Shown: positions 43,738 to 53,215 of the stretch, in pieces
Position numbering within the stretch: position 1 is the stretch's first letter
Layout: each line of letters begins with the position of its first letter
Notes under the pieces: model-generated
Seen by the model: only the letters and a program-made list of their open reading frames with translations
The model's database searches: none
Told to the model about the DNA's origin: nothing
Translations under genes and position numbers: made by a program
Assembly (NCBI RefSeq): GCF_001677475.2
Contig: NZ_CP015229.1
Length of the DNA stretch: 64,000 nucleotides
Origin: Escherichia coli
GTDB lineage: Bacteria > Pseudomonadota > Gammaproteobacteria > Enterobacterales > Enterobacteriaceae
Direction: 5' to 3' (one strand)

Positions 43738-44130
<393 letters not shown>

Positions 44131-44146
44131 TTGCTGAATAAGTTGT

Positions 44147-44174
44147 AAAAAACCCCGCTCCGGCGGGGTTTTTT
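44147..44174 (+). terminator. Rho-independent terminator of rplY
   Basis: AAAAAACCCCGC-TCCG-GCGGGGTTTTTT, a perfect GC stem plus T6. Confidence 0.9.
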
Positions 44175-44219
44175 GTATCTGCAGATTATACCTGATTACG
44201 GTATTGCTATTTTTTGCAG

Positions 44220-47539: not shown

Positions 47540-47616
47540 CGGCACGTAGCGCAGCCTGGTAGCGCACCGTCATGGGGTGTCGGGGGTCGGAGGTTCAAAT
47601 CCTCTCGTGCCGACCA
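47540..47616 (+). tRNA. proL: tRNA-Pro (anticodon GGG)
   Basis: 77-nt CGGCACGTAGCGCAGCCTGGTAGCGCACCGTCATGGGGTGTCGGGGGTCGGAGGTTCAAATCCTCTCGTGCCGACCA. It has a 7-bp acceptor stem (CGGCACG/CGTGCCG), the T-loop GGTTCAAATCC, the anticodon loop U-GGG-G and an encoded CCA. Confidence 0.97.
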
Positions 47617-47791: not shown

Positions 47792-47824
47792 AAACCCTGT
47801 TTTTTCGTGTGGAATCATAGACAT

Positions 47825-49066
47825 ATGGCGAGAAAAACACCCCCATTAACCACAGTGCAGATCAAAGCAGCCAGACCAGCGCAAAAGGAGTACACCCTAC
47901 AGGACGGCGGTGGGCTTTTTCTCCTGGTAAAACCGTCCGGATCAAAACTCTGGCGATTTTCCTACTACCGACCATCGGACAAAAAAAGAATATTGCTGAG
48001 TTTTGGATCGCTTGAAGATGTTTCCCTGGCTGATGCCAGAAAACGCCGTAGCGAGTACAGGACGTTAATCAGTGCCGGAACTGACCCGCAGGACCATGAG
48101 AAGAAAAAACGAGAGGCAGAGGCCCGAAGACAAGGGAACACGTTCGAAAATGTGGCGGCGGCATGGTACCAGGTGAAAATCAGCCAGAATCTGGCCCCCA
48201 ACACGATTAAAGACATCTGGCGTTCGCTGGATAAATATGTATTCCCGTTCATCGGCAACACGCCAATAGATACCCTCACCGCTCGCCGCTTTGTTGAGAT
48301 ACTCACACCCATTAAAGCACGCGGCAACCTGGAAACTCTGAAACGCGTTTTACAACGCATCAATGAAGTGATGGATTTTGCTGCCAACAGTGGGCTGATT
48401 GACATCAACACCGCCGCGAACGTCCGCAAGGCATTCCCTTCCCCCACTAAAAAGCATATGCCAACCATCCGACCGGAACAGCTACCGCAGCTAATGCACG
48501 ATTTATCGGTCGCCAGCATAGAACGGCAAACCAGATTGCTAATCGAGTGGCAACTGCTGACCGTAGCACGCCCAGCCGAAGCAGCCGCCGCACGCTGGGA
48601 AGAAATAGATCTCGATGCCGAAACATGGACGATTCCAGCCGGACGCATGAAGATGCGCCGTGACCATGTGATCCCTCTTTGCGGTCAGGCGATAGCTGTA
48701 CTGGAAACAATGAAGCCAATCAGCGCACACAGGGAACATGTTTTTCCCAGCCTTAAAAATCCAATGCTGCCAATGAGCAGCCAGACCGCTAACGCTGCAT
48801 TGCGCCGGATGGGATACGCTGGTGTGCTGGTGTCTCACGGATTACGCGCCATATTCAGTACAGCAGCGAACGAGGAAGGATTCGAGCCGGACGTAATCGA
48901 GGCCGCACTCGCACACGTGGACACGAACGAGGTAAGGCGAGCATATAACCGAAGTAACTACCTGGAAAAGCGCGTGGTGCTTATGCGCTGGTGGGGGGAA
49001 TTTGTAGAGGCCGCAGCTACCGGAGTGACCATAGCCAGTGGTAAAAGGGGTATCCGTGCCGTGTAA
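47825..49066 (+). CDS. int: Tyrosine recombinase, P4-family integrase (DUF4102 arm-binding N-terminus plus catalytic domain)
   Basis: 413 aa from MARKTPPLTTVQIKAARPAQKEYTLQDGGGLFLLVKPSGSKLWRFSYY, a typical P4/CP4-57-type N-terminus. The C-terminus has HGLRAIFST (HxxR) and ...RRAYNRSNY (catalytic Tyr region). It is adjacent to the tRNA attachment site. Confidence 0.92.
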   Translation: MARKTPPLTTVQIKAARPAQKEYTLQDGGGLFLLVKPSGSKLWRFSYYRPSDKKRILLSFGSLEDVSLADARKRRSEYRTLISAGTDPQDHEKKKREAEARRQGNTFENVAAAWYQVKISQNLAPNTIKDIWRSLDKYVFPFIGNTPIDTLTARRFVEILTPIKARGNLETLKRVLQRINEVMDFAANSGLIDINTAANVRKAFPSPTKKHMPTIRPEQLPQLMHDLSVASIERQTRLLIEWQLLTVARPAEAAAARWEEIDLDAETWTIPAGRMKMRRDHVIPLCGQAIAVLETMKPISAHREHVFPSLKNPMLPMSSQTANAALRRMGYAGVLVSHGLRAIFSTAANEEGFEPDVIEAALAHVDTNEVRRAYNRSNYLEKRVVLMRWWGEFVEAAATGVTIASGKRGIRAV

Positions 49067-49565: not shown

Positions 49566-49772
49566 GTGGAAACAATCAGAAAAATACTTACCCGTCAGGA
49601 AGTAAAAAATATTCTGCGCATCAAGGCAGACAGTTCGCTACAGGACATGATCAACGCCGGAAAATTCCCGAAAGGCTTCAAAATCGGTCTGCGTCGTGTT
49701 GGCTGGTATGAAGATGAAGTGCTGGCCTGGCTGAAAGAGCGCGAGGAAGAAGCGCGCGGAACGGCTGCGTAA
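49566..49772 (+). CDS. alpA: AlpA-family (MerR-like HTH) transcriptional regulator/excisionase-type protein
   Basis: 68 aa (GTG start): ...ILTRQEVKNILRIKADSSLQDMINAGKFPKGFKIGLRRVGWYEDEVLAWL. It fits the AlpA pattern (L.EV...G.S.ST.Y.....G.FP.P.K.G.R.V.W...EV..W). Confidence 0.8.
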   Translation: METIRKILTRQEVKNILRIKADSSLQDMINAGKFPKGFKIGLRRVGWYEDEVLAWLKEREEEARGTAA

Positions 49773-49922
49773 TGGTGTGAGGCGTAACGCGATGAACATA
49801 ACAAAAAGCGCCCCGTTGCCGGAGCGCCCTTGCGAACAATTAACCTACTGCGCAAAAAATGAATCAGTGCAGTGGGATTATATCAACCGTGTAGCGAAGC
49901 GCCACAATTGCCGGATAACAGG

Positions 49923-49951
49923 CAAAACAAAGGCCACCCGCTACGGTGGCC
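49923..49951 (-). terminator. Rho-independent terminator (minus strand) downstream of the RHH gene
   Basis: GGCCACC-CGCTAC-GGTGGCC perfect 7-bp stem. On the minus strand it is followed by TTTGTTTTG. Confidence 0.6.
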
Positions 49952-50054
49952 CTTCGACACAAGCTACACGTTATCCCCAACGCATAAGCGCTGATTACTA
50001 TGCCGTGATTACATCCGGTTGGCAATGTGATCAGTGCGCTGGCTTGCTGGTGGG

Positions 50055-50234
50055 CTATTCCTGCTCTTTGGCCTTGCGTCGCTGGCGGCGTTTGATCTCG
50101 CCTTGCATTGACGCAATGATGAATTGTGATGTGCTTTCGCCTGATTCTTTCACTGATTCCATGGCGTTTACTATTTCGTGTGGTACACGAGCCTTTAGAG
50201 CTTGTGATTTTGCGTTTGTTGTACCCGTTGCCAT
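50055..50234 (-). CDS. Putative ribbon-helix-helix (Arc/CopG-like) DNA-binding protein, candidate island repressor
   Basis: 59 aa, MATGTTNAKSQALKARVPHEIVNAMESVKESGESTSQFIIASMQGEIKRRQRRKAKEQE. It has a strong SD (AGAGGAATAGAAATG), a beta-strand/helix/helix pattern and a basic tail. It is transcribed divergently from the replication operon. Confidence 0.6.
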   Translation of the reverse strand: MATGTTNAKSQALKARVPHEIVNAMESVKESGESTSQFIIASMQGEIKRRQRRKAKEQE

Positions 50235-50433
50235 TTCTATTCCTCTGTTGGATTGGTGGGGGACAGTATACACAGAAAAAGCACAAATAAAACTCTTAAT
50301 GTGGACCACACCTAGAGCATATAGTGGGCCACACCTTGAGGTTATCAAGGTGCATAAATGCAAAGCCCCGCAAGTGTCGTTACCACTCGCAGGGCTTCTA
50401 ACCACCAACGATAGCAGAAGTATCGAGGTAGCT

Positions 50434-50640
50434 ATGTTAAATCATACCACACACCCGCAAGGGCGGGACTCGCACAACCTGAATAAATACATCTGGCGTT
50501 TTATCGCTCTGAGCACGGCACAACCGCGCGTGATTACCATTGAGGCCACCAGCGAACAGGAAGCACGTCAGCAATCTCCTGATGGCTGCGTGATGGTATT
50601 CGCCGCCCGTATTCGTCAGGAGGTGCGCCATGTGCAATAA
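50434..50640 (+). CDS. Icd-like small protein (first gene of the rightward early operon)
   Basis: 68 aa, MLNHTTHPQGRDSHNLNKYIWRFIALSTAQPRVITIEATSEQEARQQSPDGCVMVFAARIRQEVRHVQ, with the SD GAGG 5 nt upstream. The composition and C-terminal ...EQEAR...ARI.QEVRH motif resemble proteins I recall as annotated host cell division inhibitor Icd-like in P4-like elements. This is memory-based. It is the only credible part of the 287-aa track ORF. Confidence 0.45.
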   Translation: MLNHTTHPQGRDSHNLNKYIWRFIALSTAQPRVITIEATSEQEARQQSPDGCVMVFAARIRQEVRHVQ

Positions 50641-50866
50641 CACCCGTCCGGACGCAGCCGCCGAGGCTATCAGAACGCTGATGGACGCGCTGATTGATAT
50701 TTCTGTTATCGCAGACAAGGCGCATAAGCACGCCACCAGCGAAACAGAATATGCCGGGGCTTTCGTTCCTCACTCACTGGCTGTTATGCAATTTAGTGCT
50801 GATATGGCGCTGAATGAGGCCAGCAAAATTATCATGGCTGATATGGAGGTGGTGAGCCATGAATAA
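50630..50866 (+). CDS. Hypothetical protein (78 aa)
   Basis: Its ATG overlaps the upstream stop (ATGTGCAATAA), indicating translational coupling. The sequence is helical and acidic, with no recognisable family. Confidence 0.5.
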   Translation: MCNNTRPDAAAEAIRTLMDALIDISVIADKAHKHATSETEYAGAFVPHSLAVMQFSADMALNEASKIIMADMEVVSHE

Positions 50867-51107
50867 TCATGATTATGCGGGGGCGATTATGCGAAATAAA
50901 CGTGATATTGAAGACCTGGCATTTGAAGCCCTGCACTCTGCGAAAAAGATCAGGGAAGTCGTCAATATGTGGATGAACAGCCTTAGCACCGATAAATCCG
51001 ATAGCAGAGAGGAAATTCTTATTTCTTTGTTGTTAGACCTGGCAAATACACAGGTTTCTCTGACATCTGATATTGAACTCGCCGCTAAAAAGCTGCCTCT
51101 GGAGTAA
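50859..51107 (+). CDS. Hypothetical protein (82 aa)
   Basis: Its start overlaps the previous gene by 8 nt (ATGAATAA). No recognisable family. Confidence 0.5.
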   Translation: MNNHDYAGAIMRNKRDIEDLAFEALHSAKKIREVVNMWMNSLSTDKSDSREEILISLLLDLANTQVSLTSDIELAAKKLPLE

Positions 51108-51113
51108 AAAAAC

Positions 51114-51413
51114 ATGAAAAAGAAAAATTCTGGCTTTACTGCCAGTGGTCTCCCTCGGCCTGAAATCCGCCCCGGCGATATTTTCCGGGATAACTACGGC
51201 GGCACGGTAACGATTAAAAGTATTGCCGGACGGTGCGTTACTTACCGCCGTGATGGGTACAGCTACGACTGCGTGATGCCTGTTTATCAGTTCCGGCGTG
51301 ATTTTTCACTGATACAGGCCACACCACGCAAACAGCCCACCAGCAACGCAAAGGCACGGGCAAATATTCAGAAAATGAAAAACATGATTAACGCATTCAG
51401 GGGCACAAAATGA
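51114..51413 (+). CDS. DUF4222-like small protein (99 aa)
   Basis: PGDIFRDNYGGTVTIKSIAGRCVTYRRDGYSYDCVMPVYQFRRDF fits the pattern D.(Y/F)RD..G..VT......V.F.RDGY...C..P...F...F that I associate with prophage DUF4222 proteins. This is memory-based. Confidence 0.5.
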   Translation: MKKKNSGFTASGLPRPEIRPGDIFRDNYGGTVTIKSIAGRCVTYRRDGYSYDCVMPVYQFRRDFSLIQATPRKQPTSNAKARANIQKMKNMINAFRGTK

Positions 51414-53215
51414 AACTGGCACCGAACTTAAAAAAACAGCCACACGACAAAATGACCGAAGTCATTATTTTTGCAGGTAGTGATGCCTGGGCGCACGCGA
51501 AACAGTGGCAGGAACAGGACGGGCGACTTGCTGGCGACAACGTGCCACCTGTATGGCTGGGAGACAGCCAGCTTGACGAACTGGCAGACCTGAAAATTAT
51601 CGACGATGGTCGCTATTGTGTCCGGCTGTACAAGGCAGGCCACATCAAGCCGTCAAATATTAATGCCATCGGGCAAAAGCTGGCGGCGGCAGGTGTACGG
51701 GATGCGAGATATTACCCTGAGGGAATGCACAGCCAGAAGCGGGAGGAGTGGCGCGAATATCTGGAGCGTGCGCGCCAGAATCTTTCTGATGGTCTGGTTA
51801 TTCAGCTTCCTGTTAAGAAAAAAACAGAAGACAGCGCCGCACCACTGGCGCTTAACCAGATGGGAGCAAGCCAGCGCGGCGAAGTTCTCCTGGCACGTTA
51901 TGGCGGCGAACTGGCAATTAATGCGGACTCTGACACCGTTCACCACTACAACGGCGTTGTATGGGAGCCGGTACAGGATAAAGAGTTACAGCGGGCTATG
52001 GCACAGATTTTTATTGATGCGGAGATCAGTTATTCGCAGAACGCCATCAAATCGGCGGTCGATACCATGAAGTTAAGTTTGCCCGTAATGGGGAATACCG
52101 CCCGTAACCTGATTGGATTCAGTAACGGTGTTTTTGATACCCGGACAGGCGATTTTCGGGAGCATGACAAAAACGACTGGCTGTTAATTGCCAGTGAATT
52201 ACCGTTCAGCCCGCCAGCAGAGGGGGAAACGCTGGCAACGCATGCGCCGAATTTCTGGAAATGGTTGCGCCGTTCGGTGGCAGAGAATGGCCGTAAAGCG
52301 GATCGCGTACTGGCGGCGTTATTCATGGTGCTGGCGAACCGATACGACTGGCAGTTATTTCTTGAGGTAACGGGGCCGGGTGGAAGCGGTAAAAGCGTAA
52401 TGGCGGAGATTTGCACCATGCTGGCGGGTAAGGCCAACACGGTATCGGCAAGCATGAAGGCGCTGGAAGATGCCAGGGAACGCGCGTTAGTGGTTGGCTT
52501 TTCGCTGATTATCATGCCGGATATGACCCGCTACGCTGGTGATGGTGCAGGTATTAAGGCCATTACAGGCGGTGACAAAGTGGCAATCGACCCGAAACAT
52601 AAAGCTCCCTACTCAACACGCATTCAGGCGGTCGTGCTGGCGGTGAACAATAACGCCATGTCATTCAGTGACCGCAGTGGGGGGATCTCACGTCGTCGGG
52701 TGATATTCAATTTTTCGGAGGTTGTACCGGAGAACGAACGCGACCCCATGCTGGCAGAAAAAATAGAAGGAGAGCTGGCGGTTGTGATTCGCCACCTGCT
52801 TACTCGTTTTTCTGACCAGGACAAAGCTAAACGCCTGCTGTATGAGCAGCAGAAATCAGAAGAAGCTCTGGTGATAAAACGCGAGGGCGATTCGCTGGTG
52901 GACTTCTGCGGCTATCTCATGTCGTCGGTAATGTGTGATGGTCTGTTAGTGGGTAATGCCGAAATTATTCCGTTCAGTCCGCGCAGATATCTTTATCACG
53001 CCTATCTGGCATATATGAGGGCACACGGATTCGGTAAACCTGTAACACTGACGCGCTTCGGTAAAGATATGCCGGGGGCAATGGCGGAATATGGCAGGGA
53101 GTATATGAAACGGAAAACGAAGCACGGTTTGCGTTCAAATGTGACCCTGACAGAGGATTCAGAAGACTGGATGCCATCATGTACATCGGTCACAAATGAC
53201 GATGGAAAAAATTAA
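51410..53215 (+). CDS. Replication initiator: primase / SF3 (D5-like) helicase fusion (Pri-Rep)
   Basis: 601 aa with Walker A VTGPGGSGKS and a Walker B-like LIIMPD. The length and architecture are typical of P4-alpha/PICI Pri-Rep proteins. Its ATGA overlaps the upstream gene and it is followed immediately by iterons. Confidence 0.8.
   Translation: MKLAPNLKKQPHDKMTEVIIFAGSDAWAHAKQWQEQDGRLAGDNVPPVWLGDSQLDELADLKIIDDGRYCVRLYKAGHIKPSNINAIGQKLAAAGVRDARYYPEGMHSQKREEWREYLERARQNLSDGLVIQLPVKKKTEDSAAPLALNQMGASQRGEVLLARYGGELAINADSDTVHHYNGVVWEPVQDKELQRAMAQIFIDAEISYSQNAIKSAVDTMKLSLPVMGNTARNLIGFSNGVFDTRTGDFREHDKNDWLLIASELPFSPPAEGETLATHAPNFWKWLRRSVAENGRKADRVLAALFMVLANRYDWQLFLEVTGPGGSGKSVMAEICTMLAGKANTVSASMKALEDARERALVVGFSLIIMPDMTRYAGDGAGIKAITGGDKVAIDPKHKAPYSTRIQAVVLAVNNNAMSFSDRSGGISRRRVIFNFSEVVPENERDPMLAEKIEGELAVVIRHLLTRFSDQDKAKRLLYEQQKSEEALVIKREGDSLVDFCGYLMSSVMCDGLLVGNAEIIPFSPRRYLYHAYLAYMRAHGFGKPVTLTRFGKDMPGAMAEYGREYMKRKTKHGLRSNVTLTEDSEDWMPSCTSVTNDDGKN

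Follow-up and report, generated by a model that had tools for sequence, protein, structure and literature searches.

A 199-bp spacer (positions 50235–50433) separates a leftward gene for a ribbon-helix-helix (RHH) protein from a rightward operon that starts with an Icd-like open reading frame, in a 64,000-nucleotide stretch of Escherichia coli DNA that was analyzed as a whole and is called the window here. The question raised by this locus is which regulators act between the two genes, and on which strand. To our knowledge, the activator AlpA is the only characterized regulator of Gram-negative phage-inducible chromosomal islands (PICIs), the class of element to which the locus is assigned below. 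The founding paper on these islands, of which AlpA is a known activator, calls the existence of a repressor "unclear" (PMC6092414), and in recent surveys YlcI/YnfO and Icd-like genes appear simply as accessory or prophage-associated genes (PMC13612085). An earlier note on this DNA had read the spacer as a divergent control node in which direct repeats and two stem-loops, possibly a c4/CI-type immunity RNA, act beside the RHH protein. When its layout, coordinates, repeats, and hairpins were checked against the sequence, all were as described, and the spacer does have the makeup of a divergent control node. Our best reading is that it combines an operator-controlled early promoter with a new, widespread family of cis-antisense RNA (Table 1).

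Table 1. Features of the control region, of its counterparts in other modules, and of the surrounding island.
Feature	Positions	Strand	Sequence or remark
Integrase gene	47807–49066		island gene
AlpA gene	49566–49772		island gene, between the integrase gene and the leftward RHH gene
YlcI/YnfO-family ribbon-helix-helix gene	50055–50234	−	59 aa; presumed repressor
Predicted promoter of the RHH gene	50254–50270	−	putative −10 TATACT (50270–50265)
Predicted early (icd operon) promoter	50296–50325	+	−35 TTAATG (50296–50301), 18-nt spacer, −10 TATAGT (50320–50325); predicted start near 50332
Putative operator O1	50301–50313		GTGGACCACACCT; contains palindrome GTGGnCCAC; inside the promoter spacer
Putative operator O2	50324–50336		GTGGGCCACACCT; overlaps −10 and +1
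Perfect 8-bp hairpin	50332–50352	+	CACCTTGA-GGTTA-TCAAGGTG; starts at the predicted transcription start
Predicted ~83-nt cis-antisense RNA	50352–50435	−	SL1, linker UGGUUAG, terminator hairpin, U-rich tail; ends predicted
Putative terminator hairpin of the antisense RNA	50362–50398	−	followed by UUUGCAUUUAU (50361–50351)
SL1 of the predicted antisense RNA	50399–50434	−	anti-SD (CCUC), would pair with icd SD and AUG; from RNAalifold and pair counts
7-nt apical loop	50414–50420		GCAGAAG (plus), CUUCUGC on the RNA; candidate specificity determinant
Predicted antisense-RNA promoter	50441–50449	−	extended −10 TGgTATGAT, inside icd codons 3–5
Icd-like gene	50434–50640	+	68 aa; first of the early operon running to the primase gene; GAGG at 50425–50428
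Rightward operon			Icd-like gene (50434–50640), two small ORFs, DUF4222, P4/D5-type primase (51410–53215)
Operator repeat, O157:H7			GTGGCTGACA; three copies
Operator repeat, Edwardsiella			GTGTTCAACACCTTG; three copies
Operator repeat, Serratia fonticola			GTGTGTTTCACT; inverted pair and third imperfect copy
Operator repeat, Limnobaculum			GTGTAGTCCACT; inverted pair and third copy
Operator repeat, Gilliamella			GTGTCGAACA; two direct copies and one inverted

The spacer lies within an island of ~10.5 kb whose insertion point adjoins a tRNA at 47540–47613; in the near-identical E. coli locus L001, the same tRNA is annotated as tRNA-Pro and stands beside yejM. The primase at the end of the rightward operon has D5_N, Pox_D5, and P4 primase C-terminal domains, and further island genes encode SSB, an E-type major capsid protein, a lambda-D-type decoration protein, a second AlpA-like protein, a Nu1-type small terminase, and PerC. 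With int, alpA, a primase-type replication gene, packaging genes, a tRNA site, and a size within about 10–15 kb, the element is by its gene content a Gram-negative PICI. A blastn search against phage records gave no match.

The leftward gene has its ATG at 50234–50232 and a Shine-Dalgarno sequence (AGAGGAA) 6–7 nt upstream. Its product matches the NCBIfam YlcI/YnfO family (NF041551) at 67.4 bits (cut-off 30, E = 8e-19); a Pfam search and a PDB sequence search with this protein returned no match. It also shows the features of the CopG/Arc/MetJ ribbon-helix-helix class, an N-terminal strand followed by two helices and structural similarity to known RHH proteins, and the RHH assignment made in the earlier note is upheld. 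A longer minus-strand reading frame for the gene (TTG at 50408, 117 aa) was considered and rejected, as the Shine-Dalgarno sequence and ATG at 50234 are conserved and the homologs are 56–67 aa long. RHH proteins use the N-terminal strand to read the bases. Among the homologs, conservation ahead of the helices is lowest at positions 12–15, in that strand, and the variability there fits a co-variation of the reading head with the operator. No reported function was found for the YlcI/YnfO family in the literature searched; in comparison with the known RHH repressor/operator systems (Arc, Mnt, CopG, omega, and AmrZ), DNA binding by the YlcI/YnfO protein is predicted.

The early promoter of the window, like that of the identical locus L003, has a poor −35 (TTAATG), and a simple promoter scan did not flag the copy in the window. 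Close relatives have TTGACG-18-TATAGT at the same place, and the corresponding promoters elsewhere read TTGACG-17-TAATAT in O157, TTGACA-17-TAATAT in Gilliamella, and TTGAAG-17-TATAGT in Limnobaculum. The TTAATG hexamer may represent a promoter-down variant specific to this island.

The two direct repeats that the earlier note had listed are both present and lie 23 bp apart across this promoter. Exact matches to their shared sequence, GTGGNCCACACCT, occur in the 64 kb at these two places only; because ~0.008 exact matches are expected by simple arithmetic, two such sites 23 bp apart are not a chance occurrence. Among close relatives, the central base of O2 is A or G and the arms are fixed. This arrangement recurs with other sequences: in each of six modules (window, O157, Edwardsiella, Serratia, Limnobaculum, and Gilliamella), a module-specific motif of 10–15 nt is found twice over the early promoter, and these promoter-proximal copies are 23–34 bp apart, start to start (four modules have 23–25 bp). 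Five of the six modules also have a third copy near the RHH gene, which is exact or near-exact and at the place of the RHH-gene promoter in O157, Limnobaculum, and Gilliamella; the window has a degenerate site only, GTGGGGGACA (50254–50263), which abuts the predicted promoter of its RHH gene. At that promoter CAGTATAC recurs in the O157 and Limnobaculum modules, and this conserved sequence can be read as a −10 (TATACT) for the RHH gene. Based on the position and recurrence of the repeats, we propose that O1 and O2 are DNA operators through which the RHH protein would act on the early promoter. Because they lie upstream of the predicted transcription start, they would be operators and not boxes for RNA pairing.

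The perfect 8-bp hairpin described in the earlier note is likewise present, and in the early mRNA it most likely forms a stem-loop at the 5' end, a function suggested by its position. Equivalents at +1 to +3, with changed arms, are found in Edwardsiella (CACCTTG/CAAGGTG), O157 (ACCTT/AAGGT), Limnobaculum (ACCTTAA/TTAAGGT), and Gilliamella (ACCTAA/TTAGGT); the Serratia module has no equivalent of this hairpin. Alternatively, the hairpin may extend the operator, since the end of O2 forms its first arm.

The second, larger stem-loop of the earlier note is formed by an imperfect inverted repeat with 14-nt arms that are 86% complementary (50363–50376 and 50384–50397). It was compared among 80 IMG/VR loci with the Icd type of the window, 80 with a second Icd type, E. 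coli genomes, and the loci of Edwardsiella, Serratia, Limnobaculum, and Gilliamella. In the window, the minus strand of the spacer region folds at −42.3 kcal/mol (z = −7.1 against shuffled sequences) and the plus strand at −33.9 kcal/mol (z = −3.0). Folding each sequence on its own, we found the stem-loop to be more stable on the minus strand in 46 of 49 variants, with means of −23.5 versus −17.1 kcal/mol, and across these 49 variants the minus strand has 124 G·U pairs compared with 19 on the plus strand. Natural single substitutions in loci L029, L075, L011, and L044 each leave a G·U pair on the minus strand that is an A·C mismatch on the plus strand. Altogether, 37 distinct hairpins were found in which the stem is kept and its sequence is altered extensively, with several pair types at most positions and many compensatory changes. 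On the minus side the stem is followed by a T-rich tail in all variants listed, and on the plus side by an invariant CTAACCA with no U-tract. From these results, we conclude that the larger stem-loop is very probably a hairpin of minus-strand RNA.

This hairpin is most likely the terminator of an unannotated antisense RNA. It has a G+C-rich 15-bp stem of −26 kcal/mol and a tail that is U-rich but interrupted (UUUGCAUUUAU); a simple terminator scan did not list it as a Rho-independent terminator. No upstream minus-strand gene is present that would require a terminator at this place. All the way from E. coli to Gilliamella, the linker next to the putative terminator (CTAACCA, or UGGUUAG on the antisense RNA; 50398–50413 region) hardly varies. 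It is followed by a C/A-rich stretch, which could enhance translation from the icd leader or could equally serve the RNA as a seed or binding region.

A quite unlikely alternative is that the same hairpin works on the plus strand, as an attenuator or pause site in the icd leader that AlpA-modified RNA polymerase would read through, or as a terminator in both directions. It lies ~30 nt into the predicted leader, the A-rich tract upstream and the TT downstream give it some two-way symmetry, and AlpA-family proteins can be antiterminators, as in the accounts of Pseudomonas AlpA antitermination contained in two papers (PMC7969949, PMC9371919). However, the plus strand continues after the stem with the invariant CUAACCA and not with a U-tract, its stems are ~6 kcal/mol weaker and contain mismatches, and the natural single substitutions preserve pairing on the minus strand only.

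The strand of the structure also bears on the c4/CI-type immunity RNA proposed before, which would be a plus-strand RNA in the sense leader, processed from the early transcript and acting on repeated boxes. P1/P7 c4 and P4 CI are sense-strand RNAs that are processed from an operon transcript and pair in trans with such boxes. The position upstream of an icd-like gene, as for c4 in P1, the presence of hairpins, and the plus-strand z of −3.0 are in keeping with this proposal. Against it, A·C mismatches of the plus strand become G·U pairs of the minus strand in nearly all variants, the repeats are upstream of the predicted transcription start, and complementary boxes are at chance level: when the island was searched for trans targets of the RNA with matches of 9–12 nt, 4 were found versus 3.3 expected at k = 9, 1 versus 0.83 at k = 10, and none at k ≥ 11. 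With the Rfam models C4 (RF01695) and isrK (RF01394), a search of the entire window at the gathering score and one of 49800–50900 at E ≤ 10 both came back empty. The same search applied to P4 found both of its RNAs, CI at 74.9 bits (C4) and the leader at 60.8 bits (isrK). We consider an RNA of the c4/CI type to be extremely unlikely here, with no Rfam match, a structure on the strand opposite icd, and boxes at the level of chance. The earlier note had named two findings that together would speak against such an RNA; the first, the lack of an Rfam hit, was obtained, but the second, a lack of covarying structure, was not, as covariation is strong and is on the minus strand. Its broader idea of a protein repressor combined with RNA-based control holds in that there is an RHH gene with operator-like repeats and evidence for RNA-level regulation next to the icd-like gene, but not in the kind of RNA or its strand.

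For the minus strand, a covariance model (R1) was built from 37 sequences. It scores 87 bits at 50347–50439 (−), with no other credible match in the window; a 14-bit match at 44126–44187 was dismissed, as it fits the terminator-hairpin part only and is downstream of the rplY leader. R1 finds an RNA antisense to icd in 54 loci, it detects the element in all leader types, and in distant genera its matches are again always antisense to icd (Serratia, 83 bits; Limnobaculum, 43; Gilliamella, 42). A search of P4 with R1 gave no match. Per-sequence folds and a model-guided alignment were used for the pair counts, as plain MAFFT mis-registers the inner terminator stem. In this alignment, 96.3% of the cells are standard pairs and 14 of the 26 pairs have changes on both sides, counts that are supportive but are not probabilities because the alignment is fitted to the model, which favors structure, and the sequences are related and recombining. 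The observed values were reached in 0 of 500 shuffles, and slid controls were 32–53% paired; because of extensive recombination among the islands, the sequences are not independent.

The 5' stem-loop of the predicted RNA, SL1, points to the same strand. Its outer helix requires G·U pairs, which are present on the minus strand only, and an A-to-G change in six sequences still pairs as G·U. In leader types B–F and in Gilliamella, the anti-Shine-Dalgarno sequence is located in the SL1 loop. Because it is encoded opposite the icd leader, the predicted RNA is fully complementary to the icd Shine-Dalgarno sequence and AUG. On the minus strand, the covarying two-hairpin structure thus spans the complement of the Shine-Dalgarno sequence and AUG of a gene that comes first after a putatively repressor-controlled early promoter, the arrangement expected of a cis-antisense RNA of the P22 sar type, and we infer a cis-antisense RNA of ~83 nt that would mask the start of icd.

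The palindromes and hairpins could instead be DNA-level sites, bound by additional repressor, AlpA, integrase, or excisionase, or forming a recombination hot spot, with no role as RNA. The 3' arm of the 8-bp hairpin repeats the end of O2 in inverted orientation, and module boundaries fall at about 50346–50363 in E. coli genomes, as such sites would have it. But DNA palindromes leave the asymmetry between G·U and A·C (124 versus 19) unexplained and give no reason for stems that change completely with their pairing kept, so that this explanation is very improbable.

The RNA family is absent from Rfam, and the annotated records that were inspected list no RNA at this place. A scan of 49800–50900 with all Rfam families at E ≤ 10 gave no match of sar, or of any other family, to the feature; the one ctRNA family that matched, ctRNA_p42d, scored 19.3 bits (its gathering score is 50) and did so at 49922–49956, outside the feature. 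No report of an RNA or a repressor at this locus was found in the literature searched. The interval between alpA and the RHH gene, in which Rfam matches are weak and terminator-driven, contains two strong minus-strand terminator-like hairpins with T-tails ~100 nt apart (49804–49831 and 49929–49954), of which the one at 49929–49954 is likely the terminator of the RHH gene.

A discrete antisense RNA calls for a promoter, and a candidate −10 element is found about 80 nt upstream of the terminator hairpin in all six leader types. Among 81 unique sequences, this element reads TATGAT in 64, TATGCT in 15, and TATAAT and TATTAT in one each. The extended TG (−15/−14) is present in 62 of the 81, and 18 sequences without TG have a TTG −35 (TTGTGT or TTGCCC at 17 nt), so that TG and the TTG −35 are in complementary distribution; type-A leaders are without a −35, and the Gilliamella promoter reads TTGCCC-17-TATTAT. 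The codon that contains the −11 A is CAT wherever His is present and AAT (Asn) in Gilliamella, where the −11 A is retained as well. The O157 locus contains an internal icd copy with neither the leader module nor the antisense −10 motif. Because the promoter overlaps conserved codons (N/Q-H-T), conservation of this −10 is suggestive only and is not independent proof.

The Edwardsiella locus, obtained as the single match of a genome-contig profile search with the Icd alignment, allows the conservation of this stretch to be compared with that of its surroundings. The leaders of E. coli and Edwardsiella share 84% identity and differ mostly within a 7-nt loop, and over the first 40 nt of icd identity reaches 92%; it is 62–68% in flanking genes and DNA and 55% in the Icd protein. 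A G+C-rich hairpin in icd codons 8–12 (CCCGC-AAGG-GCGGG, 50454–50467), upstream of the antisense −10 in the minus-strand sense, is identical in Edwardsiella although the rest of icd has diverged.

It is rather unlikely, in our estimate, that the minus-strand hairpin is a terminator or insulator only, or belongs to a longer transcript (antisense or RHH leader), without base-pairing control of icd; as a terminator alone, it would keep stray leftward transcripts from running into the promoter region and the RHH gene. What the structural evidence shows is a hairpin with a tail, and by itself neither a discrete small RNA nor regulation, and the predicted antisense promoter overlaps coding sequence. 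Yet SL1 is also conserved in a minus-strand-specific way, with the anti-Shine-Dalgarno sequence in its loop in types B–F and Gilliamella, conservation from the promoter through to the terminator far exceeds that of the flanks, and no source of leftward transcription is evident besides the predicted promoter.

The presumed target of the antisense RNA, the first rightward reading frame, was called Icd-like in the earlier note, and it matches NCBIfam NF033153 at 70.3 bits over residues 19–62 (cut-off 25, E = 1e-19). A long open frame on the plus strand (49777–50640) spans the RHH gene, which is on the opposite strand, and the spacer before it runs into icd, so that annotation pipelines call N-terminally extended "Icd-like" proteins. 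Such calls give 159 aa in L001 and 97–117 aa in many database entries; the conserved Shine-Dalgarno sequence and ATG give 68 aa.

Within the conserved leader, the apical loop of SL1 is hypervariable: 73 unique type-A sequences contain 14 different loops. Pairwise diversity per site is 0.334 in the loop, 0.007 and 0.021 in its flanks, and 0.189 at third codon positions of icd. Edwardsiella and its closest E. coli relative differ at five of the seven loop positions and at two positions elsewhere in ~130 nt; the Serratia variant is GATTCAG. This pattern is that of a kissing-loop specificity determinant and makes the loop a candidate for that role, although hypervariability could reflect relaxed constraint instead of selection for specificity. 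Co-resident islands were compared in three complete same-genome pairs only, all three of which differ in the loop; as random pairs are identical in only ~7% of cases, this comparison has no statistical power.

A further idea, tentative and on balance unlikely to be right, is that the 7-nt loop, along with a terminator stem that varies freely, defines "immunity" or incompatibility groups of RNA among satellites. Were it so, the antisense RNA of a given island would silence an early transcript only if the leader loop matched, several islands could coexist and be induced independently, and an incoming island of the same type would be shut down. This would amount to a plasmid-like, RNA-based system of self/non-self recognition in phage satellites and, with the RHH protein, would supply the "missing repressor" of Gram-negative PICIs.

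The explanation of the locus that we favor, and hold to be moderately probable, is a lysogeny-type switch of a PICI at tRNA-Pro with one layer formed by the RHH repressor and another by the cis-antisense RNA. By binding O1 in the promoter spacer and O2, which covers the −10 and +1, the RHH protein would repress the early promoter, and a weaker third site at the promoter of its own gene would probably allow autoregulation. The promoter inside the first icd codons would fire leftward to yield an RNA of ~83 nt that ends at the hairpin 50398–50362 and its U-rich tail. Contact would start between the apical loop of SL1 and the complementary leader hairpin, and pairing would block icd translation or trigger cleavage, with polarity lowering the expression of the downstream replication genes, an effect for which c4 acting on icd-ant in P1 is the mechanistic precedent. 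The early and antisense promoters would converge ~100 bp apart, and because they converge, strong early transcription after activation by a helper phage or AlpA should silence the antisense promoter. Weighing against this explanation are the interrupted U-tract (UUUGCAUUUAU), type-A leaders without a −35, the poor early −35 (TTAATG) of the window, and the fact that conservation of the antisense −10 could reflect protein constraint. A switch of this kind offers a testable account of how such an island is kept silent until a helper phage arrives.

By comparison with known systems, the closest architecture appears to be the immI region of phage P22, which, as reportedly described by Liao, Wu, Susskind and co-workers in 1987, consists of the RHH repressors Mnt and Arc, the promoter Pant, and the antisense sar RNA. 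The P22 region has, and the locus here is predicted to have, an RHH repressor gene divergent from an early promoter with overlapping operators, and a cis-antisense RNA of ~70–80 nt, made from a convergent promoter and complementary to the ribosome-binding site of the downstream gene, for which promoter interference is expected. The target there is ant, whereas here it would be an icd-like gene heading the replication operon of a satellite; there the host is a phage and here a PICI-type satellite, the loop in the window is hypervariable, and its RNA is predicted from sequence. With P1 c4, the locus shares putative RNA control at an icd-type first gene, and the expected outcome is that of the c4 mechanism; c4 is said to block icd translation, with polarity on downstream genes as a consequence (Biere, Citron and Schuster, 1992). 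Unlike P1/P7 c4 and P4 CI, the RNA of the window would be on the opposite strand, would have a promoter and a terminator of its own, both predicted, and has no repeated boxes. It would resemble CopA of R1, RNA I of ColE1, and the ctRNAs as a short constitutive cis-antisense RNA with stem-loops whose apical loop varies among near-identical relatives; those copy-control RNAs belong to plasmids and this one to an integrated satellite, in which loop specificity is presumed from the pattern of variation.

The module is widespread. A megablast search found it in 1,012 of 5,426 complete E. coli genomes, at up to six places per genome, and the annotated features among the matches listed are protein-coding genes only; it is also found in Edwardsiella, Serratia, Limnobaculum, and Gilliamella. 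Many of the E. coli matches begin at about 50346–50363, and thus the unit of RNA and icd recombines with different repressor modules. In L150 (395–1700), and also in L097, L136, and L147, two complete control modules follow one another; both comprise an RHH gene, operators, the predicted antisense RNA, and the start of icd, and the first icd is truncated. The second L150 module carries the operator type of the Edwardsiella island, which suggests an exchange of modules between genera.

Other genes in and beside the island were also recorded. A second AlpA-family gene (55732–56115) is in the packaging region, and a gene for a PerC-family regulator (57681–58052) is at the right end of the island, in which EcCIMP1, with two AlpA and PerC, resembles this element (PMC11773190). 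Just past the right end is a large gene for an autotransporter of the AIDA/pertactin type (58713–61304, −).
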